Shown in pieces: positions 1 to 61,765 of a stretch of 64,000 nucleotides of DNA (the stretch's first letter is position 1; each line of letters starts with the position of its first letter). Under the pieces are notes generated by a model. It was not told where the DNA came from, ran no database searches, and saw nothing but the letters and a program-made list of their open reading frames with translations. Source of the DNA: Campylobacterales bacterium (lineage in GTDB: Bacteria > Campylobacterota > Campylobacteria > Campylobacterales > QNZT01); contig JALWLO010000025.1 of NCBI GenBank assembly GCA_027084135.1, positions 3,026 through 67,025 of the forward strand. Direction: 5' to 3'. A program made the position numbers and the translations under genes.

Positions 1-828
1 ATAGAGAATAAAATCTACCAAAATAGATACTACTTCAAGCTTTTGGATAAAAGTGCCTCTCTTCCGCATCTAACGATCACCGCAACTAATCAAAATCAAG
101 ATCGCTCTCAAGAGACGATTGAGGCAAAACCGATCAATATCATCGAGTTGAAGAGTGATGAATACTTTTGCAATGTGATCGCTTCCAAGTTTGAGATATT
201 GAGCCACCATGAAAAGCGTTATGATGAGAAGCAAAATATCGTGCTACTTGAGATCAATGCCTCTATGTCAAACCTAGAGGATATGCATCTTGGTTACGCC
301 AATCGAGAGGCGCTCGATAAGTTCGAAGATAGACTTGATAGTCAAAGTATCTACTATGTGGCTATCATACCGAACTATCTCAAAGAGTTCAAGTTCAAAT
401 ACTTCAATCAAACGCAAAATCAATTTGTAAGAGTAAAATTTCCGATCATCATCGCTGACCAATCTATCTCTACTCAAACAAATCTCAATCCTAAAAAGAG
501 TAAATATTATACCTATAAGATAGCGATATTATTTGCTATAGCGTTAGTACTATTTTTGATATTTTTGAGATACCGATCTATCCTTGCACTACTTCTTGCG
601 CTTGGACTCTTGATCTGGACAGTTTATACCAAAGTTTTAACACAAAGTGTGGTGCTTAAAGAGGGAACGAAGATCAGGATACTTCCTGTGGAAAATTCGA
701 CCATATTTTATAAAAATGCTCAAGTGGTCAAGGTTAAAGTACTTCATAAAAAGAGAGGCTATTTGAAGGTAATCTTACCAAACCAAAAGATAGGATGGGT
801 AAAAGAGGATGATATTGCAAAGAATTAA
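1..828 (+). CDS. Hypothetical membrane protein with C-terminal SH3-like tail; probably 5'-partial
   Basis: Frame 1 is open from nt 1, with no stop before the TTG at 43. Two hydrophobic helices (YKIAILFAIALVLFLIFL, ILALLLALGLLIWTVY) are followed by a KIGWVKEDDI-type bacterial SH3-like end. Overlaps the plsC start. Confidence 0.5.
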   Translation: MENKIYQNRYYFKLLDKSASLPHLTITATNQNQDRSQETIEAKPINIIELKSDEYFCNVIASKFEILSHHEKRYDEKQNIVLLEINASMSNLEDMHLGYANREALDKFEDRLDSQSIYYVAIIPNYLKEFKFKYFNQTQNQFVRVKFPIIIADQSISTQTNLNPKKSKYYTYKIAILFAIALVLFLIFLRYRSILALLLALGLLIWTVYTKVLTQSVVLKEGTKIRILPVENSTIFYKNAQVVKVKVLHKKRGYLKVILPNQKIGWVKEDDIAKN

Positions 829-1504
829 AGCTTTATATGTGGTGATAGAGTTTGTTTTAACCGTATCTATCATTATTGTATTGATGTATATATTTAATCG
901 ATACCACCGCCAAATTAGGCGATTTTGGGCGAAGATGCAGTCAAAACTTATCGGTTACAAAATAGTCGTAAAGGGCGAGATTGATCCAAAAGCGCAGATG
1001 CTTATCATGAATCACCAAAGTCTTTTAGATATCGTAGTGCTAGAGGATATCTATCCGGGAGATATCGCGTGGGTAGCGAAAAAAGAGATAGAGAAGATAC
1101 CCTTTTTCGGACATATTTTAAAAGCACCGAAGATGATATCGATTGAGAGGGAAGATAGAAAGTCTCTCATTAAACTTCTAAAAATAGCTAGGAAGAGGAT
1201 TGAAGAGGGGAGAGTGATCGGTATCTTTCCAGAAGGTACCAGAAGTGATGGTAAGCATATCAAAAGATTTAAAAGTGGTGCGAAGGTGATCGCTCAAAAG
1301 TTAGATCTAAGAGTTCAACCTGTAGTTATCGTCAATACGAGAGAGATACTTGACTCACAGCATTTGAAAGCTTCAAGCGGAACGGTTGTCGTTCGATTTT
1401 TAGATGCAGTTGAGCCGATAGCGGATGAAGAGTGGTATCAAGAGATAGAAAAGAGGATGAGAGAGGCTCTATCAGAGGAGCTTGAGGCGTTGAAAGCAAC
1501 CTAG
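809..1504 (+). CDS. plsC: 1-acyl-sn-glycerol-3-phosphate acyltransferase
   Basis: N-terminal TM helix, HX4D motif (NHQSLLD) and FPEGTRS motif typical of the PlsC/LPLAT family. Confidence 0.85.
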   Translation: MILQRIKALYVVIEFVLTVSIIIVLMYIFNRYHRQIRRFWAKMQSKLIGYKIVVKGEIDPKAQMLIMNHQSLLDIVVLEDIYPGDIAWVAKKEIEKIPFFGHILKAPKMISIEREDRKSLIKLLKIARKRIEEGRVIGIFPEGTRSDGKHIKRFKSGAKVIAQKLDLRVQPVVIVNTREILDSQHLKASSGTVVVRFLDAVEPIADEEWYQEIEKRMREALSEELEALKAT

Positions 1505-1570
1505 GTTGCATTCGTTGCTTAGGCTATTTTGATAGAATATCATCAAAAACTATCCTAAAGGAGTCTATAG

Positions 1571-3391
1571 ATGTCAAAATATGAGTTTCAAACGGAAGTG
1601 AGCGATCTTCTAAATTTGATGATACACTCACTCTATTCAAATAGAGAGATATTCTTAAGAGAGCTCATATCAAATGCTTCCGATGCACTCGATAAATTTA
1701 AATATCTAACACTAACAGATGATAAATTTAAATCTACCACATTTGATCCCAAAATAATTATCGAAATTGATAAGGATAAAAAGCTTTTAACCGTCTCAGA
1801 TAATGGTATAGGTATGGATGAAGAGGATCTCATAAAAAATCTCGGAACTATAGCCAAAAGCGGTACCAAATCTTTCCTTGAATCTCTAAAAAAGGAGCAA
1901 AAAGAGGGTACAGAGCTTATCGGTCAATTTGGTGTAGGTTTCTACTCAGCCTTTATGGTGGCTAAAAAGATAGAGGTTATCACAAAAAAGGCGAGTGAGG
2001 AGAAAGCTTATATCTGGAGTAGTACCGGAAAGAGCGACTTTAGCATCAAAGAGGGCGAAAGAGAGTCGCAGGGAACCAGCATCATCCTTCATCTAAAAAA
2101 AGATGCGGAGGAGTTTTTAGAGGAGTGGAGAATACGCTCTATTGTTGAGAAGTACTCAAATCACATCCAATTCCCAATATTCTTGAAAAAGGATGATAAA
2201 GAGGAGCAGATCAATAAAGCTTCAGCTCTGTGGAGACTCAATAAGAGTGAAATCAGCGATGAAGAGTACAAAGAGTTTTATAAAACGATCTCTCACGATA
2301 ATGATGACCCTCTCCTCTATATCCATACGCAAGCCGAAGGAACACTCACCTATACTACACTATTTTACATACCGAAAAATCCGCCGTACGATCTCTATAG
2401 AGTCGATTATCAGTCGGGGCTCAAGCTCTATGTCAAGAGGGTATTTATCACCGACGATGATAAAGAGCTGCTTCCTACCTATCTGAGATTTGTAAGAGGT
2501 ATCGTAGATGTAGAGGATATTCCGCTCAATGTCTCAAGAGAGATACTCCAACAAAATGTTATCCTCTCAAAGGTGAAAAAGGCTTCGGTGAAAAAGATAC
2601 TTAGTGAACTCAAAAAGCTAAAGAAAAAGGATAAAGAGAAGTACTTAGAGTTTTATAAAAACTTCGGAAAGGTACTCAAAGAGGGTATCATGAGCGAGTT
2701 TGACAATCGAGATGCCCTTTTAGATCTGATACTCTTTAAAACGACAAAAAGCGGTGATGATCTCATCGATTTTGAGACCTATAAGTCTAGGATGAAAGAG
2801 GATCAAAAGGAGATCTACTACCTCATAGGAGAAGATGAAAATCTACTCAAAAACTCACCGCTTCTTGAGGATTATAAAGAGAGAGATATTGAGGTAATAC
2901 TCTTTAGCGACGAGGTTGACTCTATCGTCGTTCCTCAAATAGGAAGCTATAAAGAGACTCCTCTTGTCGCTATCAACCATGCAAAGATAGATAGCGATAG
3001 CGAAGAGATCAAAAAGACTGAGGAGGAGTATAAGGAGATCATCCTCAAGATGAAGGAGCAGCTAAAAGATCAAGTCAAGGATGTCAAGGTATCACCGAGG
3101 CTCAAAAGTGCGCCAAGCTGTCTCATCTACGACAAAGATGATCCTGACTTTGCGATGATGGAGATGCTCAAACAGATGGGACAGACAAACTTACCGGAAG
3201 TCAAACCTATCCTTGAGATAAATCCGAACCATCCGATATTTAAGAAGATAAAAGAGAGTCAGGATTTTGTAAAACTGCAAAAGATTACACCGCTTATTTT
3301 GGATCTTGCAAAACTCAATGAGGGTATGAAGATAGAAGATAGTGTGGAGTTTACCAAAACGATCTCTGAGCTTATCGAAGAGAGCCTATGA
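1571..3391 (+). CDS. htpG: Molecular chaperone HtpG (Hsp90)
   Basis: 606 aa. GHKL ATPase motifs ELISNASDALDK, DNGIGM and GQFGVGFYS. ATG preceded by AAAGGAG. Confidence 0.97.
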   Translation: MSKYEFQTEVSDLLNLMIHSLYSNREIFLRELISNASDALDKFKYLTLTDDKFKSTTFDPKIIIEIDKDKKLLTVSDNGIGMDEEDLIKNLGTIAKSGTKSFLESLKKEQKEGTELIGQFGVGFYSAFMVAKKIEVITKKASEEKAYIWSSTGKSDFSIKEGERESQGTSIILHLKKDAEEFLEEWRIRSIVEKYSNHIQFPIFLKKDDKEEQINKASALWRLNKSEISDEEYKEFYKTISHDNDDPLLYIHTQAEGTLTYTTLFYIPKNPPYDLYRVDYQSGLKLYVKRVFITDDDKELLPTYLRFVRGIVDVEDIPLNVSREILQQNVILSKVKKASVKKILSELKKLKKKDKEKYLEFYKNFGKVLKEGIMSEFDNRDALLDLILFKTTKSGDDLIDFETYKSRMKEDQKEIYYLIGEDENLLKNSPLLEDYKERDIEVILFSDEVDSIVVPQIGSYKETPLVAINHAKIDSDSEEIKKTEEEYKEIILKMKEQLKDQVKDVKVSPRLKSAPSCLIYDKDDPDFAMMEMLKQMGQTNLPEVKPILEINPNHPIFKKIKESQDFVKLQKITPLILDLAKLNEGMKIEDSVEFTKTISELIEESL

Positions 3392-3825
3392 GATTAGCTC
3401 TCTTCTCCTTAGTACTAACTGTAATTTTAAATGCACAACTCTATGAGATAAACCGGTTAGAGAGTACGTTATTTTCCAAAAAGAGTTTGGATTTAAAGTC
3501 TGTAACACTCTCTTTAGTACTAGAGGGGGGCGATCTTGTTGTCAATCAACTAAAGATCCAAGATGCGCTAAACATCCTCATCTCCAGCTACTATGTCGAA
3601 GATCTGATGACATCTAAAGGAAAAGAGTCATTTAAAGAGTCACTGATAAAATTTATCAAAGAGAAGTACCATATCCATCTCTCCAACATCTACTTCAAAG
3701 AGCTAAGGCTAACCAATCCTCCCATAGAGATCGATGAACTGATCGAACGACTTAAACGCGAAGGCTGTTGCCAAGGTAAGAGTAAAATAAAAGATCTTTT
3801 TAATCAAACTAAAAATCCTCAATAG
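3388..3825 (+). CDS. FliL-like (flagellar basal-body-associated family) small membrane protein
   Basis: N-terminal TM helix. The core (TSKGKESFKESLIKFIKEKY...NIYFKELRL) matches the pattern I recall for Campylobacter FliL (TQKGKERLKDEIVGKINEIL...NVYFTDFVV). The ATGA overlap with the htpG stop suggests translational coupling. Confidence 0.45.
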   Translation: MRLALFSLVLTVILNAQLYEINRLESTLFSKKSLDLKSVTLSLVLEGGDLVVNQLKIQDALNILISSYYVEDLMTSKGKESFKESLIKFIKEKYHIHLSNIYFKELRLTNPPIEIDELIERLKREGCCQGKSKIKDLFNQTKNPQ

Positions 3826-3881
3826 GCTAAATATTATCTAAATTGGTTATAATTATGACAATTTTTTTAAGGAATTAGGAT

Positions 3882-5579
3882 ATGGAGTTAAACGGTTCAC
3901 AGATGATTTTAGAAGCCCTCAAAGCTGAGGGTGTCAAGGTCGCATTTGGTTATCCGGGCGGCGCTATCATGAATGTATATGATGAGATCTATAAATATAA
4001 CTTCAAACATATTTTAACACGCCATGAACAAGCCGCTGTTCATGCGGCTGATGGGTATGCCAGAGCAACAGGTGAGGTCGGTGTGGCGCTTGTTACCAGC
4101 GGTCCAGGATTTACAAATGCCGTAACAGGTATCGCAACAGCTTTTACGGACTCTATACCGCTTGTTGTGATCTCCGGACAGGTACCGACCTCTCTCATAG
4201 GTACTGATGCTTTTCAAGAGATCGATGCCGTCGGGATCAGCAGACCGTGTACTAAACACAACTATCTCGTAAAGTCTATCGAAGAGTTGCCAAGGGTCTT
4301 GAAAGAGGCGTTCTATATCGCAAGAAGCGGTAGAAGCGGACCGGTGCATATCGATATACCGAAGGATGTAACCGCTGCCGTCGGTGAGTTCAACTATCCG
4401 GATGATATAACCCTAGAGACATACAAACCCACTTACAAAGGTTCCCCTAGGCAGATCAAAAGAGCGATAGAAGCGATCAAGGAGGCGAAAAAACCTATCC
4501 TCTATCTTGGAGGAGGTCTTGTACTTTCAAACTCCGCTAATGAACTGAGAGAGTTTATGGAGCTTACTGAGATACCTGCTGTTGAGACATTGATGGCAAG
4601 AGGTGTCGTAGGTGCGGATAATCCGCTTCTACTTGGCATGGTAGGTATGCACGGTAACTACGCCTCAAATATGGCGATGAGCGAAGCGGATTTGATGATA
4701 GCTTTTGGTCCAAGATTTGACGATAGGGTTACGGGTAGGCTAGATGAATTTGCGAAGCACGCAAAGATCATCCATGTCGACATCGATCCAAGTAGCATAG
4801 GAAAGTTAGTACACACAGATTATCCGATCGTCGGTGATCTCAAAAATGTCCTCAAAGAGATGAATGCGATACTCAAAGAGAAGGGATTTAACAAAGAGAG
4901 ACTCAAAAGCTGGAGAGAGCTTCTCAGAAGATATGATGAAGTGCATCCTCTCTCTTATGAGAAAGATAGCAAAGTGATTAAACCGCAATGGGTGATAGAG
5001 AGAGTAGGGGAGTTGGTCGGTGATAATGCGATTATCTCTACTGATGTGGGTCAGCATCAGATGTGGACCGCTCAATTTTATCCCTTTGATAGACCGAGAC
5101 AGTTTATCACAAGCGGTGGACTCGGCACGATGGGCTTCGGTTTTCCGGCTGCCATCGGCGCTAAAATAGCCAAAAAAGAGAATATCGTGATCAATATCAG
5201 CGGTGACGGTTCGATCTTGATGAATATCCAAGAGTTGATGACTGCGGTAGAGTATGATGTTCCGGTTATCAATATCATACTCAACAACAACTATCTCGGC
5301 ATGGTGAGACAGTGGCAAACATTTTTCTATGAGAAGAGATATGCCGAAACAGACCTCTCTATGCAGCCCAATTTTGTAAAACTAGCTGAGAGTTTCGGAG
5401 GAGTAGGATATAGAGTCGAAAACCAAGAGGAGTTTGATAAGGCGCTAAAAGATGCTATCGAGCAACAAAAGGTTGCTATGATAGATGTCGTCGTCGATAG
5501 ATATGAGAATGTTCTTCCGATGGTTCCAAGCGGCGGAACACTTTATAATATGTTACTTGAGTTTAAGGATAACAAATGA
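3882..5579 (+). CDS. ilvB: Acetolactate synthase (acetohydroxyacid synthase) large subunit
   Basis: 565 aa. ThDP-enzyme motifs (GYPGGAIM, GGLGTMGFGFPAAIGA, GDGSILMNIQEL). Followed by the small subunit with an overlapping stop/start. Confidence 0.93.
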   Translation: MELNGSQMILEALKAEGVKVAFGYPGGAIMNVYDEIYKYNFKHILTRHEQAAVHAADGYARATGEVGVALVTSGPGFTNAVTGIATAFTDSIPLVVISGQVPTSLIGTDAFQEIDAVGISRPCTKHNYLVKSIEELPRVLKEAFYIARSGRSGPVHIDIPKDVTAAVGEFNYPDDITLETYKPTYKGSPRQIKRAIEAIKEAKKPILYLGGGLVLSNSANELREFMELTEIPAVETLMARGVVGADNPLLLGMVGMHGNYASNMAMSEADLMIAFGPRFDDRVTGRLDEFAKHAKIIHVDIDPSSIGKLVHTDYPIVGDLKNVLKEMNAILKEKGFNKERLKSWRELLRRYDEVHPLSYEKDSKVIKPQWVIERVGELVGDNAIISTDVGQHQMWTAQFYPFDRPRQFITSGGLGTMGFGFPAAIGAKIAKKENIVINISGDGSILMNIQELMTAVEYDVPVINIILNNNYLGMVRQWQTFFYEKRYAETDLSMQPNFVKLAESFGGVGYRVENQEEFDKALKDAIEQQKVAMIDVVVDRYENVLPMVPSGGTLYNMLLEFKDNK

Positions 5580-6052
5580 GCAAAGAGGTAAGAAAAGTAC
5601 TATCTGTTATTGTAAAAAATGAGCATGGAGTTCTATCAAGGATCTCAAACCTCTTTACGGCAAGGGGATACAATATCGAGTCACTCACAGTCGCTCCTAT
5701 ACCAAATAGTGATTTTTCAAGATTTACGATCGTTACAAAAGGAAGCGAGAGAGTCTTGGAGCAGATCGTCAAACAGTTGCATAAGTTGATCCCTACCTAT
5801 AAGGTTATCGAAAACCAAAATGTGGTGGAAAAAGAGATGTTGCTTGTAAAGATTCCATTAAATACAAACTTAAGCGGACTCGATGCGATACTCAAAGGGT
5901 ATAACGGCATCGTTGCCAACTCAACCTCAGATAGCTTGATATTGATGGCGGTTGATGATGCTAAAAGGATAGAGAACTTCACCAAAGTGATACAGAAATT
6001 TAACCCTACGGAGATCGTAAGAGGCGGTTCGGTATCGATGGAGATCTCATGA
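5576..6052 (+). CDS. ilvN: Acetolactate synthase small (regulatory, ACT-domain) subunit
   Basis: 158 aa. ACT-domain N-terminus [32 protein letters not shown]. 4-nt overlap with ilvB. Confidence 0.92.
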
Positions 6053-7002
6053 GAGTGGGTAAGCTTGCAGATGAGCTTGGCATAGCATATGAGGGAGATG
6101 ATTTTGAGATTAGCTCGATAAATACGCTATCTGCCGCAAAGCGTGATGAGATCAGCTTCTTTGACAATAAAAAGTATAAGGATGAGTTGAAAGAGACAAA
6201 TGCTGGAGCCGTCTTTATCGCTAAGGCGTTTATTGGTCTTCTGCCAAAGGGAGTCGGAGCCTTAATCAGTGAAGAGCCCTACCTCTCGATGGCAAGGGCT
6301 ACGAAATATTTTGCAAAAGATATCGTTAGAGAAGGAGCAAAGCCGACTATCGATGAGAGTGCCTATATCGCTGATGGTGTTCATATAGGAAAAAATTCAA
6401 AGATCTCAAAAAATGTCACCATCTTAAGTAACGCTGTTATCGGTGATGATGTCCTCATAGGGGAGGGTAGTACGATCTATCCCAATGTCACGATCTATAA
6501 TGATACTATTATAGGTAAAAATGTTACAATTCACGCTGGAGCTGTCATAGGAAGCGACGGTTTCGGATATGCACATGCACAAGAGGGTGAGCATATCAAG
6601 ATCTACCATAATGGTAGGGTGGTCATAGAGGATGATGTAGAGATAGGTGCAAATACAACCGTAGATAGAGCGGTTTTTGGAGAGACGAGGATAAGAGAGG
6701 GAAGCAAGATAGATAACCTCGTACAAATAGGGCATAACTGCGATATCGGTGCGAGAAGTATCATCGTCTCTCAAGTCGGCATTTCAGGCTCAAGCACGCT
6801 TGGTAGAAATGTCGTCATGGGCGGTCAAAGTGCAACCGCCGGTCACCTAACGATAGGAGACGGAGCCACCATAGCGGCAAGAGGAGGTGTCACAAAGAGC
6901 ATCGAGGGAGGTAAAGTTTATAGCGGATTTCCGCTGATGCTCCATAGTGACTGGTTAAAGTTGCAAGCAAAACTATCAAAATTTTTAAAAAAGGGGTCAT
7001 GA
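6049..7002 (+). CDS. lpxD: UDP-3-O-acylglucosamine N-acyltransferase
   Basis: 317 aa. Long left-handed beta-helix hexapeptide repeats, and an N-terminal LpxD-type domain (ISFFDNKKY). Confidence 0.9.
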
Positions 7003-7239
7003 ATGTCAAAAGAGTCAAAAGTGTTGAAAACTTTTAAATTAGCCGGTACGAAAAACGGTACTATCTCAGTTTCACACATCAGTGAGCCGTACGGCGAGGA
7101 TAGTAAACCGGTCGTGAGTATCGGAATATCGTTAAAAGGTGATATCAACGAGCCCGATTGGAAGGCTCATATACCGTATGAGAATATTGACGACCTCATA
7201 GAGGCGCTCAAAGAGGCGAAAAGCCAAAATATGGGCTAA
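7003..7239 (+). CDS. Small hypothetical protein (78 aa)
   Basis: ATG directly abuts the lpxD TGA (tgaATG). No recognisable motif. Retained only because of tight coupling and non-repetitive composition. Confidence 0.4.
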   Translation: MSKESKVLKTFKLAGTKNGTISVSHISEPYGEDSKPVVSIGISLKGDINEPDWKAHIPYENIDDLIEALKEAKSQNMG

Positions 7240-7267
7240 TTGTAGATTAAGCATTTTTAGATACAAT
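7240..7267 (+). promoter_or_regulatory. Candidate sigma70-type promoter of the rpmH-rnpA-yidD-yidC-jag-mnmE operon
   Basis: TTGTAG (7240-7245), 16-nt spacer, TACAAT (7262-7267). AAAGGG Shine-Dalgarno at 7285-7290 ahead of rpmH. Confidence 0.4.
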
Positions 7268-7296
7268 TGCCAACCAAAAATAGTAAAGGGTAAATG

Positions 7297-7431
7297 ATGA
7301 AAAGAACTTATCAACCACACAATACACCGAGAAAGAGAACACATGGCTTTCGCGCAAGAATGAAAACGAAAAACGGAAGAAGAGTGATCAAAGCTAGAAG
7401 AGCGAAGGGTAGAAAGAGATTAGCCGTTTAA
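7297..7431 (+). CDS. rpmH: 50S ribosomal protein L34
   Basis: Translates to [44 protein letters not shown] (44 aa). Absent from the ORF track because it is under 60 aa. Confidence 0.95.
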
Positions 7432-51964: not shown

Positions 51965-51989
51965 AAAAAGGGGTCAACTCCCCTTTTTT
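51965..51989 (+). terminator. Rho-independent terminator of hup
   Basis: AAAAAGGGG-TCAACT-CCCCTTTTTT: GC-cored stem plus a T6 tract, 19 nt after the hup stop. Confidence 0.8.
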
Positions 51990-51994
51990 CTTAA

Positions 51995-52081: not shown

Positions 52082-52099
52082 CTACAATAAGGCTTTCAC

Positions 52100-54760
52100 T
52101 TGAAAACAATTACTGTGATTGATACATTTGGGTTCTTTTTCAGAAACTACTATGCACTTCCACACCTCAAAAGCAAAAAAGGCTTTCCCACTGGACTTTT
52201 GACAGGATTTATCAACTTCATAGGTTCGCTAAACAAGGAGTATAACACCGACTATATTCTATTTGCACTCGACTCCAAAGAGAAAAACCTAAGAAAAGAG
52301 ATCGACCCTAACTATAAAGCCAATAGACCTGAACCGCCTGAAGAGTTGAAAGAGCAACTTCCCGTCGCTGTTGAGTGGATCAAGAAGATGGGCTTTAAAG
52401 AGTTAAGTATCGACGGATATGAGGCCGATGATATCATCGCCTCTATCGTAAAACTTGCCAAGAAGAGAGGTATCCGAGTCAATATCGTCTCTCACGACAA
52501 GGATCTCTATCAACTCATAGATGATAAAAAGAGTGTCATATTTGATCCGATGAAGAAGAGATTTATCGATGAGGAGGGATGCAAAGAGAAGTTTGGAGTT
52601 GAGCCTAAGCAGATCGTTGACTATTTAGCGCTAGTGGGTGATAGCTCAGATAATATCCCAGGGGTCAAAGGGATAGGTCCAAAGGGTGCGGTCAAGCTTC
52701 TCAAAGCATTCGGTACACTTGAAAATATCTATAACAATCTTGATAAGATTGACAACCCAAGAACAAAGAAGCTACTTATTGAGGGTAAAGAGCGGGCATT
52801 TTTGAGTAAAAAGCTGGCTACTTTGCATGATGACCTCCTCGATGATGAGGATTTTGAGAAGTTTAAGTTTCCATCCAATAATCCCATTTTACAAATTGCC
52901 GATGAGTTGATCGATCTTGATATGAACGCTATCTTAAGAAGGGCGGGTGCAAGCTATGAGAAAAACAGGATAAGCTGCGAGGCAAATAGCAGCTTCACAC
53001 CTAATCTTATCGATAATGAAGATGAGCTATTTAAAATCATTGAAAGCATAGAAAGCGGTAGGGTTGTAGCCTTTGATACCGAAACCACCTCCCTCAATCC
53101 TCTAAGAGCGAAGATTGTCGGCTTCTCTTTCAGTTTTGACGAGAGTAGCGCTTACTATGTGCCGATAGCCCATAGTTATCTTGGGGTTGGGGATCAGATT
53201 AGTTTAAAAAGCGCCCAAGATGCGATAGAGAGACTCTTTAACGATTTTAAAATCGTAGGGCAAAATCTAAAATATGATCTCTTGGTACTAAAGAGAAATT
53301 TTGGACTCTACAGACCGCCGATAGTTGCCGATACGATGATCATCTCTTGGTTACTTGACTCATCCCTTAGTAGCGGACTTGACAATATGGCAAAGAGATA
53401 CTTCAACTATGATATGGTGAAATTCAAGGATGTCGTCAAAAAAGGGGAAAACTTTGCTACTGTTGAACTAAGTGAAGCGTGTAGATATGCAAGCGAAGAT
53501 GCATGGATGACACTCAAACTCTACAACTTTCTAAAAGATAAGCTCGACGCCACACTCGCAAAAGAGGCAAAAGAGGTGGAGTATCCCTTTATCTACACAC
53601 TGATGGATATGGAGGAGTGCGGGATCAAGATAGATACCGACTTCTTCTCCAAGCTCTTAGCCAAAGCAAACGATAAATTGGCAAATCTTACCACTAAAAT
53701 CTATGAGCTAGCCGGCACAGAGTTCAATATCAACTCGACCCAACAACTAGGCTCCATACTCTTTGAGAAGTTGAACCTTCCCAAAGGGAAAAAGACAAAA
53801 ACGGGCTACTCTACAAATGAGAGCGTTCTCAACTCTCTAAAAGAGGCACACCCTATCATCCCGCTACTCCTTGAGTATCGAGAGGTTTACAAACTCAAAT
53901 CCACCTATATCGAGCCGCTCATGAAACTGGCATTTGAGGAGGATGATTTTAGAGTGCATACCTCATTTTTACAAACCGGAACAACTACCGGCAGACTGAG
54001 CTCGAAAAATCCAAACCTCCAAAATATTCCGGTTCGAACAGAGCTTGGGCGGGAGATAAGAGAGGGTTTTGTGGCTGAAGAGGGTAAAAAACTCATCTCT
54101 ATCGACTACTCTCAAATAGAGTTGAGGCTTCTTGCTCACTTTTCACAAGATAGCTCTTTATTAAAGGCGTTTAGAGAGGATAAAGATATACATTTAGAAA
54201 CCGCTATAAAGCTTTTCGGTGAAGCGGAGGCGAAAGAGAAGAGAAATATCGCAAAGAGTATCAACTTCGGACTCCTATACGGTATGGGTTCAAGAAAACT
54301 GGCTCAAACGCTGGGGATCTCAACCAAACTTGCAAAAGAGTATATTCAAAACTACTTTTCCTCATTTCCGACTGTAAAAAACTATCTCGAAGAGATCAAA
54401 GAGCGTGCAAAACGGGATAATGAGATACGAACCCTACTTGGCAGAAGGCGGGTCTTTGACTATACAAGAGCGAGTGCATTTGAGAAGGCTTCATTTGAGA
54501 GAGAGAGCGTCAACACCCTCTTTCAAGGATCAGCCGCTGATATCATCAAACTTGCGATGAATAAGATCGATGCATCACTACTGGATGAAAACGCAAAGAT
54601 GCTCTTGCAGATACACGATGAGTTGATATTTGAAGTGGTTGAAGATAAGGCTGAGGAGTTTGCCAATCAAGCGAAAGATTTGATGGAGCATATCTATAAA
54701 CTAAATGTTCCTCTAAAGTGCTCTGTTTCGATCGGTAACAATTGGGGTGAATTAAAGTAA
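52100..54760 (+). CDS. polA: DNA polymerase I
   Basis: 886 aa, TTG start with AAGG SD. 5'-nuclease domain, 3'-5' exo-like domain (AFDTETTSL), and polymerase motifs DYSQIELR and QIHDELIFE. Confidence 0.97.
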   Translation: MKTITVIDTFGFFFRNYYALPHLKSKKGFPTGLLTGFINFIGSLNKEYNTDYILFALDSKEKNLRKEIDPNYKANRPEPPEELKEQLPVAVEWIKKMGFKELSIDGYEADDIIASIVKLAKKRGIRVNIVSHDKDLYQLIDDKKSVIFDPMKKRFIDEEGCKEKFGVEPKQIVDYLALVGDSSDNIPGVKGIGPKGAVKLLKAFGTLENIYNNLDKIDNPRTKKLLIEGKERAFLSKKLATLHDDLLDDEDFEKFKFPSNNPILQIADELIDLDMNAILRRAGASYEKNRISCEANSSFTPNLIDNEDELFKIIESIESGRVVAFDTETTSLNPLRAKIVGFSFSFDESSAYYVPIAHSYLGVGDQISLKSAQDAIERLFNDFKIVGQNLKYDLLVLKRNFGLYRPPIVADTMIISWLLDSSLSSGLDNMAKRYFNYDMVKFKDVVKKGENFATVELSEACRYASEDAWMTLKLYNFLKDKLDATLAKEAKEVEYPFIYTLMDMEECGIKIDTDFFSKLLAKANDKLANLTTKIYELAGTEFNINSTQQLGSILFEKLNLPKGKKTKTGYSTNESVLNSLKEAHPIIPLLLEYREVYKLKSTYIEPLMKLAFEEDDFRVHTSFLQTGTTTGRLSSKNPNLQNIPVRTELGREIREGFVAEEGKKLISIDYSQIELRLLAHFSQDSSLLKAFREDKDIHLETAIKLFGEAEAKEKRNIAKSINFGLLYGMGSRKLAQTLGISTKLAKEYIQNYFSSFPTVKNYLEEIKERAKRDNEIRTLLGRRRVFDYTRASAFEKASFERESVNTLFQGSAADIIKLAMNKIDASLLDENAKMLLQIHDELIFEVVEDKAEEFANQAKDLMEHIYKLNVPLKCSVSIGNNWGELK

Positions 54761-54777
54761 GAGAGGTAATTATTTCA

Positions 54778-54826
54778 TTAAAGTGTTAAGTAACACTTGA
54801 CACTTTAAGACAAAATCTGCTATACT
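54778..54826 (+). promoter_or_regulatory. Promoter with nested dyad operators upstream of the MerR-family gene
   Basis: TTGACA (54797-54802), 18-nt spacer, TATACT (54821-54826). Dyad 1 is AAGTGTTA-AG-TAACACTT (54781-54798). Dyad 2 is TTAAAGTGT (54778-54786) / ACACTTTAA (54800-54808). Confidence 0.5.
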
Positions 54827-54853
54827 TCTGATATCAAAACAGAAGGATACCCC

Positions 54854-55414
54854 ATGTCTCTTAAAATGTCAGAAGTTGTCAAAATGACAAATGTGAGTAA
54901 ATCAACGATCCTCTACTATGTCAAAGAGGGTTTGCTTCCTGAGCCAGATAAACCTAAAACAAATCTGCATCTCTATGATGAGAGTGTAATCCCTAGAATA
55001 GAGTTTATCAAGTTCCTCCAACACAATCTTCACTACTCTATAAGTGAGATTAAGCAGATACTCGAGGATCATAGTCTCGACTTTCACTCCGGAAGTAGTG
55101 AGATCATAAACTATCTCACCGCATTAAATAGCTCCCATATGAGTAGTAGCGTCAGCGAGATAAAGGTAAGAGCCAAAGCACTTGGACTTGATATGAAACT
55201 CTTTGAGGAGTATGAGAGAGAGGCAAAAAAGATTGCACAAATCGAATATGAATACTTTGCTAAACTCCTAGATGAGAGTAAAAACAATAGCGATAACAAA
55301 CTCCATAAACTGATATTTGAGATTTTACTCTCAGTCAAACCCTACATCTATAACCAAGCGACTATCAATGAGCACAAAAGAAGAGTCAAAGTGAATAAAA
55401 AGGATGAGAGATGA
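54854..55414 (+). CDS. MerR-family transcriptional regulator
   Basis: 186 aa. N-terminal winged HTH (MSEVVKMTNVSKSTILYYVKEGLLPEP) followed by a coiled-coil/effector region. 4-nt overlap with the downstream fusion gene. Confidence 0.85.
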   Translation: MSLKMSEVVKMTNVSKSTILYYVKEGLLPEPDKPKTNLHLYDESVIPRIEFIKFLQHNLHYSISEIKQILEDHSLDFHSGSSEIINYLTALNSSHMSSSVSEIKVRAKALGLDMKLFEEYEREAKKIAQIEYEYFAKLLDESKNNSDNKLHKLIFEILLSVKPYIYNQATINEHKRRVKVNKKDER

Positions 55415-58400
55415 TAAGTTTAAAAAGATATCGTGACATTTTCCCCTATATTGTTGTTGTATTTTTAAATGCAATCGTTGATCTGGGGGATAAAATACTT
55501 CTTCAAAATACTATCTTTAAGGTGTATGAGGGTTCGACACAGATAGTACTAACGGCATTTGTGAATATGCTTATCATTCTACCGGGGATTCTCTTTTTTA
55601 CCCCTTCCGGTGTGATTAGCGATAGATACCCCAAAACAAAGGTGCTCTTTGAGTCCTCTAAAGTAGCTTTAGTACTAACGATATTGACTTCACTTAGCTA
55701 CTTCTTCGGACTCTTTAAGGTAGCGCTTTTCTTAACATTTCTGCTTGCCACGCAAAGCGCCTTCTTCTTTCCGGCAAAGTATGCACTGATAAAAGAGCTT
55801 TTTGGAAAAGATAGATTGCCCGAAGGAAACGGTATCGTTCAAGCCGTAACGATCATAGCCATACTACTTAGTTCTCTGCTCTTTTCCATACTCTTTGAAA
55901 AGGCGGTTACCGGAAGTGAGCGGAGTGCTTCAGAGATACTCACGCATATCGCGCCCATCACCCTGCTGTTGATCATAGCCGCCCTACTTCAAACCTATAT
56001 GGCTAAAAAGGTACCGGTTGTGGATGAGGGGGATAGGCGTTTAGAGATCAGTACCCAAAAACTCTTTAGTAAAGCCTATATCAAGAAAAATCTATCAATC
56101 GCATTCTCAAACCATGTTATTGCAGAATCGATCATCGGATTAGCACTATTTTACGGAATCGCTCAAGTCGTACTAGCGATATTTGGCGTCTATCTCAAAG
56201 ATGTTGCCAATGAGCATAACACCGTTGTAGCGCAGGGGATTATGGCGCTCTCAGGTGTCGGTATAGCGATAGGTGCCTTGCTGACGGCAAAATTTTCAAA
56301 AAACTATATCGAAACCGGGCTGATTCCGGTGGGAACATTGGGGATCGTCATCTCTCTCATCGGTATCACACACTCTCACAGCAGTTTCTATTTGGGTGTG
56401 TGGTTTTTACTCTTTGGTCTTTTTGGCGGATTTATCCTGGTAGTGCTCAATGCCATCATCCAATATCGAGCCAAAGAGCATGAGCTTGGAAGAGTGATGG
56501 CAACCAGCAATTTAGTACAAAATATCTCCATGACACTCTTTTTGCTACTAACCATTCTCGTCGCTTTTAAGCATATCGATACCGTGACCATCTTCAATAC
56601 GCTCATCGCCATCACAGTCGTATCACTCCTCTATACACTCATCACGCTTCCTCAATTTCTACTTAGATTTCTCTTTAAATTGATTGCACTCTCAAGATAT
56701 AGGCTGATGGTTGACGGCGTTGAGAATTTTCCAAAAGATGGTGCGGCTCTGCTACTTGGAAACCATGTAAGCTGGATCGATTGGATGGTTCTAGCTATCG
56801 CATCCCCTAGAAGAGTAAGCTTTGTGATCGAGAGAAATATCTACAATAGATGGTACCTAAAGCCTTTTTTCAAATTTTTTGGACTTATTCCCATCTCTTC
56901 CAGAGCCTCTAAAGATGCCTTCAAAGGTATCAGAGAGAAGTTAAATGAGGGCAAAATCGTCGCCCTCTTCCCAGAAGGTGCCATCACGAGAAACGGGCAT
57001 CTCGGTAAGTTCCAAAAGGGGTATGAGATTGCTCTAAAAGATATGGATGTTCCGATTATTCCCTTTTGTATCAGAGGATTATGGGGAAGTAGGTTTTCAT
57101 ACGCCAATGCTAAACATAAAGAGAATACCAAATATAGCGATAGAGTGGTCGGTGTCACTTTCGGCAAAGCTAAGCCATCAACGATAAAAGCGGAGGCGCT
57201 CAAGAGAGAGGTGGTAAAACTGCTCAATATCTCATGGGAAAAGTATGCCGATACCCTCAAACCGCTACCCAATAGCTGGATCAAAACGGCAAAAAGAAGA
57301 GGTGAAAAGTTTATGATAGCCGACGCGACCGGTACGAAACTTGGAGCAGGCAAATTTGTAGCTGTAGTAAAAACCTTTTCTGATAAGTTACAACAACTCA
57401 GCAGGAATGAGCAAAATATAGCGCTTATCATGCCGCCCTCTGTCGGAGGAACGATACTCAATATGGCAGTACTAATGCTTGGGAAAACGGTTGTCAATCT
57501 AAACTATACGGCAAATCAAACCGCTCTCCTAAGTGCAATTGAAAAGGCAAATATCAAAAAGATCTACACCTCCAAGCAGTTTATCACAAAACTCAAAGCC
57601 AGAGGTATAGACTTAACACCGATCTTAGAGAGTGTGGATACAATCTATGTAGAAGAGATTAAAAAGGAGATCAAAAAGAGTGATGTGCTCAAAAATTGGG
57701 CACTTTTTAAGTTATTGCCTAGATTTATCATAGAGCGGATCTGGATCAAAAGTGTCGATATTAACGATACAGCGGCAATTTTATTTAGTAGCGGTAGCGA
57801 AGGCACACCTAAGGGGATAGAGCTAACGCATCGAAACTTTATGGCAAATATCAAACAGTTTTGCCATGTACTTAACTTCCAAGATGATGATATAATGATG
57901 GCGACACTGCCGACATTTCATGTCTTTGGTCTCACCGTCTCCACCTTTGCCCCTCTCATCGAGGGAGTACCCTTTGTATGTCAGCCTGATCCTACCGATG
58001 CGGAGGGGGTAGGAAAACTTGTAGCGAAATATCGCGCTACCCTCATATTCGGCACCTCCACATTTTATAGGATCTATACCAAAAATAGAAAACTGATTCC
58101 ACTCATGTTTGAGTCGCTTAGATTTGCGGTAGCGGGCGCTGAAAAGCTATCGGATGATATAAGGGATGAGTTTAAAGCAAAATTTGGACTCGATATCTAT
58201 GAGGCATATGGTGCCACAGAGACAAGTCCCGGCATCAGTGCAAATATACCCGATAAACTTAATACAACTTATTGGAATCTTCAAATAGGTCACAAGAGAG
58301 GAAGTGTCGGTATGCCTTTCCCTGGAACGATCTGTAAAATCGTCGATCCAGATAGTATGGAAGAGTTGGAGATTGGTGAAGATGGGATGATTATTGTCAC

Positions 58401-58866
58401 CGGTCCTCAAGTGATGAAGGGGTATCTAGGTGACATGAAGAGGACAAAAGAGGTGATCGTGGAACTTGACGGACGAAGGTGGTATATTACGGGAGATAAA
58501 GGAAAGCTTGATAGCGACGGCTTCTTGACGATAGTCGATCGTTACTCAAGATTTGCAAAGATTGGGGGAGAGATGGTCTCTCTCGGTGCAGTCGAAGAGG
58601 AGATACGAAAGATCATCCCCAATGATATCGACATCATTGCGGCAAATACACCTGATACTAAGAAAGGAGAGAGAGTCGTACTACTCTTTTGCGGGGAGAT
58701 TGAAGCAGAGGAGTTAAAAGAGGTGATCAAAAACTCCTCACTCAATCCTTTGATGCAACCAAGCTCCTACTATAAAGTGGAGGAGATGCCCAAACTCGGA
58801 AGCGGAAAGAGTGATCTCAAATTAGCGAAAAAGATAGCGATGGAGTTGGAGGGATATAGTGGTTGA
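55411..58866 (+). CDS. aas: Triple-fusion lysophospholipid transporter (LplT-like MFS) / 2-acyl-GPE acyltransferase / acyl-ACP synthetase (Aas)
   Basis: 1151 aa. About 420 aa is a 12-TM MFS domain, then an HX4D acyltransferase (GNHVSWIDW, FPEGAITRNG), then an AMP-binding domain (LFSSGSEGTPKGIELTHRN, YGATETS, TGDKGKLDSDGFLTIVDR). Confidence 0.85.
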   Translation: MISLKRYRDIFPYIVVVFLNAIVDLGDKILLQNTIFKVYEGSTQIVLTAFVNMLIILPGILFFTPSGVISDRYPKTKVLFESSKVALVLTILTSLSYFFGLFKVALFLTFLLATQSAFFFPAKYALIKELFGKDRLPEGNGIVQAVTIIAILLSSLLFSILFEKAVTGSERSASEILTHIAPITLLLIIAALLQTYMAKKVPVVDEGDRRLEISTQKLFSKAYIKKNLSIAFSNHVIAESIIGLALFYGIAQVVLAIFGVYLKDVANEHNTVVAQGIMALSGVGIAIGALLTAKFSKNYIETGLIPVGTLGIVISLIGITHSHSSFYLGVWFLLFGLFGGFILVVLNAIIQYRAKEHELGRVMATSNLVQNISMTLFLLLTILVAFKHIDTVTIFNTLIAITVVSLLYTLITLPQFLLRFLFKLIALSRYRLMVDGVENFPKDGAALLLGNHVSWIDWMVLAIASPRRVSFVIERNIYNRWYLKPFFKFFGLIPISSRASKDAFKGIREKLNEGKIVALFPEGAITRNGHLGKFQKGYEIALKDMDVPIIPFCIRGLWGSRFSYANAKHKENTKYSDRVVGVTFGKAKPSTIKAEALKREVVKLLNISWEKYADTLKPLPNSWIKTAKRRGEKFMIADATGTKLGAGKFVAVVKTFSDKLQQLSRNEQNIALIMPPSVGGTILNMAVLMLGKTVVNLNYTANQTALLSAIEKANIKKIYTSKQFITKLKARGIDLTPILESVDTIYVEEIKKEIKKSDVLKNWALFKLLPRFIIERIWIKSVDINDTAAILFSSGSEGTPKGIELTHRNFMANIKQFCHVLNFQDDDIMMATLPTFHVFGLTVSTFAPLIEGVPFVCQPDPTDAEGVGKLVAKYRATLIFGTSTFYRIYTKNRKLIPLMFESLRFAVAGAEKLSDDIRDEFKAKFGLDIYEAYGATETSPGISANIPDKLNTTYWNLQIGHKRGSVGMPFPGTICKIVDPDSMEELEIGEDGMIIVTGPQVMKGYLGDMKRTKEVIVELDGRRWYITGDKGKLDSDGFLTIVDRYSRFAKIGGEMVSLGAVEEEIRKIIPNDIDIIAANTPDTKKGERVVLLFCGEIEAEELKEVIKNSSLNPLMQPSSYYKVEEMPKLGSGKSDLKLAKKIAMELEGYSG

Positions 58867-59836: not shown

Positions 59837-59837
59837 C

Positions 59838-59918
59838 CCAAGTTTTGTATCAGCCGATGATCAAGACATCTGATAAACCTTTTAATGCAAAATTTGGCTT
59901 TAACCCATATTTTGGGTT
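59838..59918. other. Nested inverted repeats between convergent genes (possible bidirectional terminator; contains a copy of the 34-nt repeat)
   Basis: CCAAGTTTTG (59839-59848) pairs 9/10 with CAAAATTTGG (59888-59897). Inner TATCAG/CTGATA pair. Separate AACCCA-TATTT-TGGGTT hairpin at 59902-59918. Confidence 0.4.
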
Positions 59919-61765
59919 CAAACAAGAGCCGGCAACTTTGCTTCCTGCTTTAACAACTTCTCCTCATCTATCGGTTCGCTAAAATAGTAGCCTTGAAACT
60001 CATCTATCCCTATCTTTTGAGAGACTTCAAAGACCTCTTTAGAGTGCACAAACTCAGCTATCGTTTTAATTCCTAGCGATGATGCCAAGGTTACGATAGA
60101 ACTCACCAGTTTATAGGAGTTAGTATTCTTATCGATCTCCTTGATCAAAGAACCGTCGATCTTAAGATAATCAGGAAAGATATCAAGAATATTTGTAAAG
60201 TTTGAAAAGCCGCTTCCAAAATCATCTATCGCGATTTTGACTCCCATCTCTTTAAATTGATTTAAGACCCTTTTTAAGAGTGCGAAATCCTTCACATCTT
60301 CACTCTCTACAATCTCTAGTACTAATCTATGCGCCATATCATATGTTTTGATCAACTCTTTTAGTGTAGTCATTGTAGTACTATTTTTTATGTCGGAGTA
60401 TTGGAGATTGATAGAGATATCACTCTCAAGGTTTTTCATCGCGGCGAAACTCTTCTCTATCATGATCTTAGTCAGTGAGCTATACTGCTTTGTCTTTATG
60501 GCGATATCTAAAAACTTAAACGGAGATAGCACATTGATCCTGCCCCCTTCATCTCTCTCTTTGATCCTGATTAAAGCTTCATACTTTAGTGTATTGCCCT
60601 CTTTGTCAACAATCGGCTGAAAAAAAGGTACCACTCTATCTTCGTGGATAGCATCTTTGATCCTTTTTCGCCAAGAGAGTATATCAGCCAACTCTTTTTG
60701 GGAATCAAGCCCCTTGTAGTAGGCTTGATAATTTCTTCTCTCTTTTTTTGCATGTTTAAGCGCGATATTTGCCTTCTCTATCGCATGCTCCTTCTCCATA
60801 GAGATCGCTATCGTTGCATCAATTTCAAGATCTATATCTTCCTCATCATGACGGAAGGTAATCTTATAGGAGGTAATTCTCTCCATCAGATTTGTCACAT
60901 CTTCAAATATCTTATCAGGCATCGCAAACTTCTCTTTGCTTCTCAAAAAGAAACCGTCTGTATAGACATGATATGCTTCATAGTTATGCTCTTGGGCAAA
61001 GGCATCTAAAAGGGCGGCAAACTTTTTTAGTACTAAGTTTCCAACCTCTAAACCGTAGAGGTCGTTATAGTCTTGAAATTTATCGATATCGATCAACATA
61101 ATAGAGCTAAAAGATTTCTTGATATCCTCTTGCAGCGCATCCATATTTTTTAGACCGGTCAGTTTGTTGTGGTAGAGTTGATACTCCAACTCATTTGTTC
61201 TTTGCTTTACCATCGAGTCTAAATCAACATTCATCTTATACATACTTTCGATCAATCTATTATAGTAGAGTGACAGCACCAAAAATCCCACTAAAAGTGA
61301 GTATTTAAACTGAGGCATACTCTCCCAATGTTGATTAGTACTTGTTGCAATATAAAAGGCTACTGCTGTTAAAAGAAGTGTCGAGTAGAAATATTTTGGA
61401 CCAAATCGAACACCGTTACCCATCACTATCCACAACAGTAGCGGATATACAACACTACTGGATAAATCATTGAGATAAATAAATGTGGAGATAATAGAGA
61501 TATCGACCAAGTTTGTTACGGTTTGCCTTACCGTAAAATTAAAGTAACCCTTTTTAAGAATAAAAATAGCAAGCAAAGACAAGCCAAAATGTATACCGCC
61601 AAGCAGGATCAAATCCAACTTTACACTACTTTGCAAAGCGTAATCAATCAATAAATAGATAAAAAATAGTGATGATACAACTGCTCTTATATAGGTGTAT
61701 CTATGCTCATTACTTTTAGATACATTTTCCTTAAGCTTTTCTACTGCAAATCTTAACAAATTCAA
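59918..61765 (-). CDS. Membrane-anchored degenerate-GGDEF / EAL domain protein (probable c-di-GMP phosphodiesterase)
   Basis: 615 aa. About 5 N-terminal TM helices. The GGDEF site reads YTDGFF and the GD of the substrate loop is lost. The EAL domain is intact (YEALIRI, DDFGSGFSNF, LKIDGSLI, QGYYFSEP). Confidence 0.85.
   Translation of the reverse strand: MNLLRFAVEKLKENVSKSNEHRYTYIRAVVSSLFFIYLLIDYALQSSVKLDLILLGGIHFGLSLLAIFILKKGYFNFTVRQTVTNLVDISIISTFIYLNDLSSSVVYPLLLWIVMGNGVRFGPKYFYSTLLLTAVAFYIATSTNQHWESMPQFKYSLLVGFLVLSLYYNRLIESMYKMNVDLDSMVKQRTNELEYQLYHNKLTGLKNMDALQEDIKKSFSSIMLIDIDKFQDYNDLYGLEVGNLVLKKFAALLDAFAQEHNYEAYHVYTDGFFLRSKEKFAMPDKIFEDVTNLMERITSYKITFRHDEEDIDLEIDATIAISMEKEHAIEKANIALKHAKKERRNYQAYYKGLDSQKELADILSWRKRIKDAIHEDRVVPFFQPIVDKEGNTLKYEALIRIKERDEGGRINVLSPFKFLDIAIKTKQYSSLTKIMIEKSFAAMKNLESDISINLQYSDIKNSTTMTTLKELIKTYDMAHRLVLEIVESEDVKDFALLKRVLNQFKEMGVKIAIDDFGSGFSNFTNILDIFPDYLKIDGSLIKEIDKNTNSYKLVSSIVTLASSLGIKTIAEFVHSKEVFEVSQKIGIDEFQGYYFSEPIDEEKLLKQEAKLPALV

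Follow-up and report, generated by a model that had tools for sequence, protein, structure and literature searches.

Evidence for a highly iterated palindrome-type octamer in a small, Sulfurospirillum-related clade of Campylobacterota

The perfectly palindromic octamer TAGTACTA occurs 30 times in a 64,000-nt stretch of the Campylobacterales contig JALWLO010000025.1 (this whole stretch is called the window in the following; its G+C content is 40.7%, where the first-pass annotation of the sequence had assumed about 38%). A pattern search for exact copies recovered all 30 positions that this annotation had listed, with none missing and none extra. The observations described below suggest, with a probability of about 0.9, that TAGTACTA is a real element of the highly iterated palindrome (HIP) type, which has spread by substitution and is specific to one lineage. 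Since the octamer is unrelated to GCGATCGC, the HIP1 of cyanobacteria, and contains neither a GATC nor a CGATCG core, it is not HIP1 but a new HIP with a new sequence in a new phylum. Full-text literature searches yielded no description of the TAGTACTA motif nor of any HIP in Campylobacterota, which agrees with what had been supposed before, and a literature search for HIPs outside cyanobacteria found nothing relevant.

TAGTACTA is the commonest 8-mer of the whole window, above every A/T-rich word, and its own overlapping shifts are the next most over-represented 8-mers. In 100 dinucleotide-preserving shuffles of the window only 0.86 ± 0.92 copies were expected (maximum 4), and Markov models of orders 0-3 predicted 0.8-1.8 copies per strand (0.9 at order 3), giving observed-to-expected ratios (O/E) of 17-36; the enrichment over chance amounts to 33-35-fold. 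Models of order 5 and order 6 predicted 16 and 25 copies, respectively (O/E 1.9 and 1.2). This fit is, however, circular, since 30 of the 31 TAGTACT 7-mers in the window belong to TAGTACTA itself. The preferred form of the octamer is the 10-mer TTAGTACTAA, with 11 copies, while YTAGTACTAR is found 21 times; on the 5′ side T or C adjoins 24 and on the 3′ side A or G adjoins 26 of the 30 copies, numbers that had been read correctly in the first-pass annotation. Extension of the word relative to background is 3.2-fold from GTAC to AGTACT, 7.3-fold from AGTACT to TAGTACTA and 4.2-fold from TAGTACTA to TTAGTACTAA, with no preference past the 10-mer. In line with this, T occupies the symmetrised -1 position at 64% of 50 sites and sequence conservation in the window ends at ±1 nt of the octamer.

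The inner core is unremarkable when it stands alone. Of the 47 AGTACT hexamers in the window 17 lie outside TAGTACTA (about 16 had been estimated by eye), and GTAC outside the motif matches expectation or exceeds it slightly (136 compared with about 113 expected), so that the excess is specific to the extended palindrome. One-off variants of TAGTACTA deviate mostly at the outer positions (31 observed, 14-20 expected) and less so at the inner ones (13 observed, 16-24 expected), low counts which are suggestive only. The word that C>T deamination would yield, TAGTATTA/TAATACTA, was found twice, with 2.7-4.8 copies expected, which for such tiny counts is neither a clear depletion nor a clear enrichment. 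Spacing of the copies resembles random placement (coefficient of variation 0.95; 49% of random placements were equally dispersed), and no periodic or over-dispersed short-range spacing was found in the 64-kb window, which is too short for periods of 10-90 kb. The three longest stretches free of the motif are 33050-40072 (7.0 kb; 2-oxoacid:ferredoxin oxidoreductase, succinyl-CoA ligase and fumarase), 48627-55543 (6.9 kb; flgL and polA) and 3523-8227 (4.7 kb; ilvB/N and lpxD); despite them, the overall spacing is compatible with random placement.

Most copies are located in genes. Open reading frames (ORFs) of at least 150 aa contain 25 of the 30 sites, and two more (3410 and 3515) fall within a 145-aa ORF (3388-3825). 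The earlier figure of 27 of 30 copies in coding sequences therefore stands for 25 of them, whereas the other two count only if the 145-aa ORF is real; accordingly, three sites are situated in spacers, or five if this ORF is not counted. Thirteen sites are read as xTA-GTA-CTA ([L/I/V]-V-L) and twelve as xxT-AGT-ACT-Axx (S-T), and the third frame of TAGTACTA is closed by TAG, so the use of the two stop-avoiding frames had been recognized correctly. Shuffling of synonymous codons within genes (46 large ORFs) left 1.7 ± 1.3 copies (maximum 6) compared with the 25 observed. Of the [LIV]VL tripeptides, 13 out of 34 are spelled as the motif (0.4 expected), and the same holds for 12 out of 37 compatible xSTx peptides (0.9 expected), meaning that about one third of the peptide contexts able to carry TAGTACTA already carry it. 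The dipeptides themselves show at most a modest excess (ST 75 compared with 61 expected, VL 113 compared with 116), and in the window GTA accounts for 28% of Val and AGT for 30% of Ser codons. The result of the codon shuffle, together with the share of peptides spelled as the motif, therefore demonstrates that DNA is what the underlying force acts on, rather than protein or codon usage.

Judged by PolA and other proteins, the window falls in the Campylobacterota, near uncultured Sulfurospirillum and Campylobacterales metagenome-assembled genomes (MAGs). The closest genome found, the MAG GCA_054011135.1 (L034), has a PolA 80% identical to that of the window and is fully syntenic with it from about 41 to 64 kb of the window. 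Its 22.3 kb contain 20 copies of TAGTACTA, which is the top 8-mer there as well (22-29-fold enriched) and reaches a density of 898 per Mb, compared with 469 per Mb in the window. Over the same syntenic genes the G+C contents are about 6 points apart (window 40.7%, L034 35.4%), and it is the AT-richer genome that has twice the motif density of the window. The Logan assembly L038, which holds a 5.3-kb copy of the hisD region with 99.98% identity, carries the same three sites. Since three sites are present in this independent assembly and six are shared with a second species, the motif is no assembly artefact.

The next relatives, in contrast, show no enrichment of TAGTACTA, with 0-2 copies each: this applies to L035 (GCA_054035195.1, 1-22655) and L036 (GCA_054040775.1), whose PolA proteins are 72-73% identical, to L001 (69%) and to the syntenic outgroup L199 (JGI 3300045637, 1-11058; FlgL 54%), which was reached via flgL. 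L037 likewise lies within 0-2 copies, and so do 33 genome loci with PolA proteins 36-69% identical to that of the window, most of them from Campylobacterota (50-69% PolA identity) and two from distant non-Campylobacterota MAGs. A scan of a metagenome collection returned at least 120 loci, which were tandem arrays or low-GC contigs; among the matches listed none had a window-like tetranucleotide signature and no further clade members were present. A scan of IMG/VR for closely spaced TTAGTACTAA pairs yielded only local iteron-like arrays or a TA-rich phage (L048) and no dispersed HIP. Among the genome loci compared, enrichment of TAGTACTA is lineage-specific and confined to a small Sulfurospirillum-related clade, of which two MAG species have been found so far. 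Several neighbours behave in the opposite way with regard to the core of the motif: GTAC is absent from L035 (30.5 expected) and from L017 (Helicobacter sp. 11S02596-1, 1-22715; 23.6 expected) and occurs only twice in L199 (17 expected). Since these three loci nearly purge GTAC, GTAC-specific restriction pressure is common right beside the motif-rich clade. L017 also lacks CATG (0 compared with 103 expected), which implies CATG-specific restriction systems too.

The alignment of the window with L034 (74% DNA identity) allows the history of single sites to be followed. Six of the nine window sites in the region covered by both, and six of the 20 L034 sites, occupy the same orthologous position, whereas among all 8-mers the conserved share is only 10.9% (binomial P = 1e-4 for six of nine and 0.02 for six of 20); of control palindromic 8-mers, 4 out of 45 at 25% G+C and 9 out of 81 others are kept in L034. 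Like the test on one-off variants, these comparisons rest on small counts. As the flanks of the shared sites are only 0.73 identical, the sites are not simply situated within conserved blocks, and the constituent codons are kept at 0.6-1.0 inside the motif compared with 0.28-0.50 outside. The first-pass annotation had placed the sites mostly in weakly constrained segments; this was not borne out, the flank identity to L034 being 0.67 compared with 0.69 at random positions.

Sites that are not shared align to words one to three substitutions off, for example TCGTACTA, TGGTACTA, TAGTACGA and TAGTGCTC. No nearby gap is present in 17 of 23 site columns, the remaining ones lying in poorly aligned linkers or spacers, and neither the alignment of the window with L034 nor the codon alignments, which included the outgroups L001, L035 and L036, revealed an insertion signature at the sites relative to orthologues. 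The codon alignments contain synonymous gains (GTG>GTA, GTC>GTA and TTG>TTA) as well as gains that changed the amino acid (Phe>Leu, Ser>Thr and, in L034, Arg>Leu). At the site at 55544 the outgroup L001 is one synonymous step off (GTG), and the site at 55670 was made partly by a non-synonymous change, as the outgroups read F-V/I-L there. The sites thus arise in place by point substitution, both synonymous and non-synonymous, and not by insertion, as the comparison of orthologues suggested in the first-pass annotation now shows. As several sites in L034 date from after the split, the process is ongoing. Given gain by substitution combined with retention far above that of other words, a sequence-specific force must be acting on DNA in this lineage. 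Whatever exerts it has to recognize 8-10 bp of double-stranded DNA in a symmetric manner and to bias either how TAGTACTA is fixed or how it is retained.

The obvious term of comparison is HIP1 (GCGATCGC), next to which the alternative cyanobacterial HIPs GGGATCCC, TCGATCGA and CAGGCCTG have been described (PMC4390886; PMC5861425; 10.64898/2026.06.24.733823). HIP1 occurs at 300-2700 copies per Mb with O/E values of 15-300 (PMC4390886; PMC5861425), and TAGTACTA, likewise a palindromic octamer and the top 8-mer, falls within these ranges with 469 and 898 copies per Mb and O/E values of 22-35. Both words are dispersed through coding DNA (here in both open frames) and non-coding DNA without a longer repeat unit, spread by substitution without indels and often extend symmetrically to a 10-mer. 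They also have in common that positions are conserved between related genomes above control palindromes and that the distribution is patchy by lineage, with close relatives lacking the word. The bias of one-off variants towards outer positions and the lack of an excess of the bare core, both described for HIP1, are suggested here too, at low counts. The likeness to HIP1 that the first-pass annotation had proposed, i.e., a dispersed palindrome independent of frame and not of compositional origin, survived the Markov and codon nulls, the check for a longer repeat unit, the survey of relatives and the substitution and conservation tests. Unlike HIP1, TAGTACTA is AT-rich (25% G+C) with neither GATC nor CG, its host belongs to a phylum from which MutL and MutH are reportedly absent, and the clade carrying it is small. 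HIP1 has furthermore been reported to hold target sites of orphan methyltransferases (PMC4390886), to be placed quasi-periodically with periods of 10-90 kb and to increase transformation in a way that depends on methylation (10.64898/2026.06.24.733823).

Other classes of short genomic words resemble TAGTACTA in part. The DNA uptake sequences (DUS) of Neisseria and the uptake signal sequences (USS) of Pasteurellaceae are also short words at about 0.5-1 per kb, located mostly in genes in tolerant frames and peptides; they accumulate by point mutation, are common to closely related species only and are thought to be spread by a transformation-linked drive. In contrast to TAGTACTA, they are non-palindromic 9-12-mers recognized in one orientation. 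As a perfect palindrome TAGTACTA fails the definition of a DUS or USS, and the contrast with uptake sequences drawn in the first-pass annotation holds to this extent; it is a formal one, however, which does not speak against a role as uptake tag like that of CtsM/RAATTY, and an uptake role stays a leading candidate. The CtsM-methylated RAATTY of Campylobacter jejuni is a palindromic motif from the same phylum and the most direct precedent for the function proposed below, although as a degenerate 6-mer that is frequent in AT-rich DNA it has not been reported as a hyper-enriched 8-10-mer. Restriction-site avoidance, as seen in L035, L199 and L017, involves the same GTAC core with the opposite sign, TAGTACTA being about 35-fold enriched. 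Polar chromosome words such as Chi or the FtsK-orienting and architecture-imparting sequences (KOPS/AIMS), which differ between the strands and follow the direction of replication in their skew, were rejected as counterparts, because a palindrome reads alike on both strands and cannot carry polarity.

Among the possible causes we tentatively favour a self tag that is marked by a methyltransferase and propagated through a transformation-linked drive. According to this proposal TAGTACTA would be the target of a DNA methyltransferase with a GTAC or AGTACT core, and the methylated word would serve as a mark of "self". DNA with marked copies would be taken up or recombined preferentially during natural transformation, so that alleles gaining TAGTACTA would be over-transmitted and alleles losing it under-transmitted. 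A molecular drive of this kind, for which uptake signal sequences offer a proposed parallel, might fill a genome to about 0.5-0.9 sites per kb. The preference for a self tag has several grounds. Methylation-dependent transformation, to which HIP1 has been linked experimentally, is now the leading functional idea for that element (10.64898/2026.06.24.733823), and C. jejuni, a member of the same phylum, takes up only DNA with the CtsM-methylated motif, methylation marking self at the first uptake step (PMC8468864); these two precedents make an uptake or self-tag role a leading candidate. In addition, a core of 4-6 bp is a classic specificity of restriction-modification, with neighbours evidently under GTAC restriction, and a ratchet based on mismatch repair would need machinery of the MutL/MutH type, which is reported missing in Epsilonproteobacteria.

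This last point concerns the explanation by a sequence-specific repair bias, in which a GTAC or AGTACT methyltransferase together with a mismatch-correcting or very-short-patch-like activity would restore or create the full palindrome. It corresponds to the "ratchet" model of Elhai for HIP1, in which the word accumulates and persists without any function. Several observations suit it: near-cognate words turn into sites by single substitutions, variants one step off tend, at low counts, to preserve the inner GTAC, this core shows no excess apart from complete copies of TAGTACTA, and the density is near the predicted saturation of about one site per kb; the variant pattern and the unenriched core are what the model was built to explain (PMC4390886). 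Nevertheless, Epsilonproteobacteria are generally without MutL and MutH and typically have only MutS2, as reported for A. butzleri (PMC2147049), so that a ratchet based on mismatch repair has no obvious machinery here. As the deamination product mentioned above, at its tiny counts, gives no very-short-patch signature either, and neither a Vsr-like nor a methyltransferase gene was seen in the window, we regard a repair bias as rather unlikely, though a serious contender. A binding site of an abundant nucleoid-associated or chromosome-organizing protein, kept by selection for chromosome architecture as Xu et al. proposed for HIP1, would account for a perfect 10-bp palindrome, which suits a dimeric binder, and for conservation above both control palindromes and the word's own codons outside the motif, an observation mirroring the argument for selection made for HIP1 (PMC5861425). 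Yet the spacing within the window is like random (on a scale too short for the periods reported for HIP1), no candidate protein has been identified, and a structural need is not obviously compatible with immediate relatives that are wholly without the word; such a role appears improbable.

The two remaining explanations fare considerably worse. That base composition, codon usage, codon-pair bias or selection for Leu-Val-Leu and Ser-Thr peptides has produced the copies might be supported by the fact that the constituent codons are common and that Markov models of orders 5 and 6 predict most of the count. The latter fit being circular, it is set against the codon-preserving shuffle, the enrichment of the same word in two frames and in spacers, dipeptide counts at most modestly above expectation and relatives of similar composition without any enrichment; for practical purposes the shuffles, Markov models and codon null exclude this origin, which is highly improbable. 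The copies could also be relics or ends of a small mobile element of the miniature inverted-repeat transposable element (MITE) or repetitive extragenic palindromic (REP) type, or a local tandem or iteron repeat, given that TTAGTACTAA forms tight local arrays in viral and metagenomic contigs elsewhere. Here, however, nothing is conserved past ±1 nt of the 8-mer, i.e., only 8-10 bp, insertions relative to orthologues were not seen, 25-27 of the 30 copies lie in intact housekeeping ORFs and their spacing is random. A REP/MITE-type repeat would moreover measure tens of bp or more, with a conserved sequence or hairpin, and would lie mostly between genes, present or missing as an insertion. No mobile-element gene was found in the window. 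The site alignments, the codon alignments and the unconserved flanks thus rule out a mobile-element origin and a REP/MITE-type repeat, the chance of either being next to nil.

Several points weigh against the picture of a genome-wide HIP acting as a methylated self tag. Its spread over the genome is extrapolated from one chromosomal region of about 64 kb in two uncultured species, albeit 64 kb of unremarkable core genes are a fair sample for such an extrapolation. Among 45 ORFs of the window scanned against Pfam, all of which were housekeeping genes or had no Pfam match, no methyltransferase, nuclease or competence gene was found, and no Vsr-like gene was seen either. Selection for protein binding and a continuing repair bias predict positional conservation to the same degree, and since the latter also protects existing sites, such conservation does not separate the models. 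Finally, the known uptake signals DUS and USS are not palindromes.

What HIP1 does and how it arose has been under debate for thirty years, on data that come essentially from one phylum. An independent HIP with an unrelated AT-rich sequence in the Campylobacterota, in which methylated-motif-dependent DNA uptake is proven and the canonical mismatch-repair genes for MutL and MutH are reportedly missing, would represent a natural replicate for the unresolved HIP problem. Genes that are common to HIP-bearing cyanobacteria and the two MAGs but missing from the HIP-free sisters, two of which avoid GTAC, would make up a short list of candidates for the HIP machinery. If the clade is really without MutS1 and MutL, the repair-ratchet model loses generality. 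In practical terms, the motif may serve as a marker for binning and tracking the clade and as a design rule for transforming it. One could speculate further that HIPs are a general outcome whenever a lineage gains a restriction-free methyltransferase of long specificity that is coupled to methylation-dependent uptake. TAGTACTA would then be an independently evolved methylated transformation self tag in the Sulfurospirillum-related clade, born, in a phylum without MutL and MutH, of those restriction-modification systems of the GTAC type which lead its nearest relatives to purge GTAC. We consider this broader idea doubtful; if it were true, the MutL/MutH-free phylum would show that HIPs do not in general stem from a mismatch-repair ratchet.

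The genes in which the individual copies are located (Table 1) belong to a run of housekeeping genes comprising htpG, ilvB/N, lpxD, yidC, mnmE, aroB, hisD, fba, those for 2-oxoacid:ferredoxin oxidoreductase, sucCD and fumarase, and further the genes for monomeric isocitrate dehydrogenase (IDH), acnB, ftsK, flgL, polA and a GGDEF-EAL protein.

Table 1. Copies of TAGTACTA in the window; those that form part of the 10-mer are listed as TTAGTACTAA, with the position of the octamer.
Form	Position	Location (strand)	Reading	Other assemblies
TAGTACTA	545-552	ORF 43-828 (+), no Pfam match	GCG-TTA-GTA-CTA (A-L-V-L)	
TTAGTACTAA	3410-3417	between htpG and gene for acetolactate synthase large subunit, within 145-aa ORF 3388-3825 (+)		
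TAGTACTA	3515-3522	145-aa ORF 3388-3825 / htpG-ilvB spacer		
TAGTACTA	8228-8235	yidC 8106-9710 (+)	AAT-AGT-ACT-AAA (N-S-T-K)	
TTAGTACTAA	8972-8979	yidC (+)	TTT-AGT-ACT-AAC (F-S-T-N)	
TAGTACTA	10657-10664	mnmE 10470-11723 (+)	CTA-GTA-CTA (L-V-L)	
TTAGTACTAA	10958-10965	mnmE (+)	CTT-AGT-ACT-AAT (L-S-T-N)	
TTAGTACTAA	11729-11736	intergenic, 6 nt past mnmE stop codon		
TTAGTACTAA	14678-14685	AAA/M41 (FtsH-like) gene 13380-15062 (-)	L-S-T-K	
TAGTACTA	16125-16132	radical-SAM/UPF0004 gene 15049-16299 (-)	S-S-T-R	
TAGTACTA	17932-17939	MscS-like channel gene 16271-17989 (-)	F-S-T-S	
TTAGTACTAA	18010-18017	aroB 17971-19038 (-)	L-V-L	
TTAGTACTAA	22135-22142	TetR-family gene 21679-22296 (-)	L-V-L	also in L038
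TAGTACTA	23480-23487	hisD 22277-23581 (-)	L-V-L	also in L038
TAGTACTA	23732-23739	ORF 23559-24446 (-), no Pfam match	A-S-T-K	also in L038
TAGTACTA	27654-27661	FIST-domain histidine kinase gene 26425-28410 (-)	F-S-T-S	
TAGTACTA	28029-28036	FIST-domain histidine kinase gene 26425-28410 (-)	F-S-T-I	
TAGTACTA	29699-29706	ORF 28538-30022 (-), no Pfam match	L-V-L	
TAGTACTA	30825-30832	DUF697 gene 30114-31091 (-)	L-V-L	
TTAGTACTAA	33042-33049	between convergent genes; TAG of the motif is the stop codon of ORF 32547-33044 (+)		
TAGTACTA	40073-40080	ORF 39434-40390 (-)	V-V-L	
TAGTACTA	42685-42692	intergenic, icd (monomeric IDH) start / yceG end		absent at aligned L034 position
TTAGTACTAA	43701-43708	yceG 42810-43748 (-)	L-V-L	absent at aligned L034 position
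TAGTACTA	44529-44536	acnB 44308-46878 (-)	F-S-T-S	orthologous position kept in L034
TAGTACTA	48619-48626	ftsK 46991-49294 (-), linker region	S-S-T-N	present at aligned L034 position, indel adjoining
TAGTACTA	55544-55551	MFS/acyltransferase/AMP-ligase fusion gene 55411-58866 (+)	ATA-GTA-CTA (I-V-L)	kept in L034
TTAGTACTAA	55670-55677	MFS/acyltransferase/AMP-ligase fusion gene 55411-58866 (+)	L-V-L	kept in L034
TAGTACTA	60317-60324	GGDEF-EAL gene 59918-61765 (-)	L-V-L	kept in L034
TAGTACTA	60376-60383	GGDEF-EAL gene 59918-61765 (-)	N-S-T-T	kept in L034
TTAGTACTAA	61028-61035	GGDEF-EAL gene 59918-61765 (-)	L-V-L	absent at aligned L034 position

At 33040-33058 the motif has a 7-bp tandem copy behind it (TTAGTACTA-AGTACTAA; AGTACTA-AGTACTA), which lies in the 9-bp gap between two convergent genes. 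Two ORFs overlap almost fully on opposite strands at 12360-12890 (-, 176 aa) and 12424-12918 (+, 164 aa). The "flagellin" ORF of the window turned out to be the single-copy flgL, without paralogues.

Dense tandem arrays of TAGTACTA were encountered in four unrelated metagenomic or viral contigs (L094 962-3253, L120 1310-2926, L042 2782-2893 and L061 1586-1697), two of them with 41 copies each at a spacing of multiples of 18 or 27 bp and the other two with 8 copies each at 9-27 bp. These arrays represent tandem repeats of a coding or iteron-like type and are unconnected with the clade of the window. Other palindromes were considered as well. TATCGATA was rejected as a second enriched palindrome of the window, because the order-3 model already expects 10.8 of its 15 copies, which makes it compositional. 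TACATGTA (mostly TTACATGTAA), which has the same TTA-N4-TAA frame as the TAGTACTA motif, is present with 17, 11 and 7 copies (O/E 35-70) in the Campylobacteraceae MAG loci L020, L016 and L004, respectively, and had been taken into account as a second HIP of Campylobacterota. Alignment revealed that most of its copies cluster in unaligned intergenic stretches (L020 4863-5200 and 12642-13101; L016 11114-11586) and are not dispersed in genes, which sets them apart from the TAGTACTA phenomenon; the word is probably a regulatory or iteron-like repeat and not a HIP. TTGGCCAA, which has a GGCC core, occurs nine times in 22.7 kb of L012 (Nitratiruptor sp. MAG, 1-22673; O/E 13 at order 1 and 3.8 at order 3) and four times in L029, and may be another mildly enriched palindrome.

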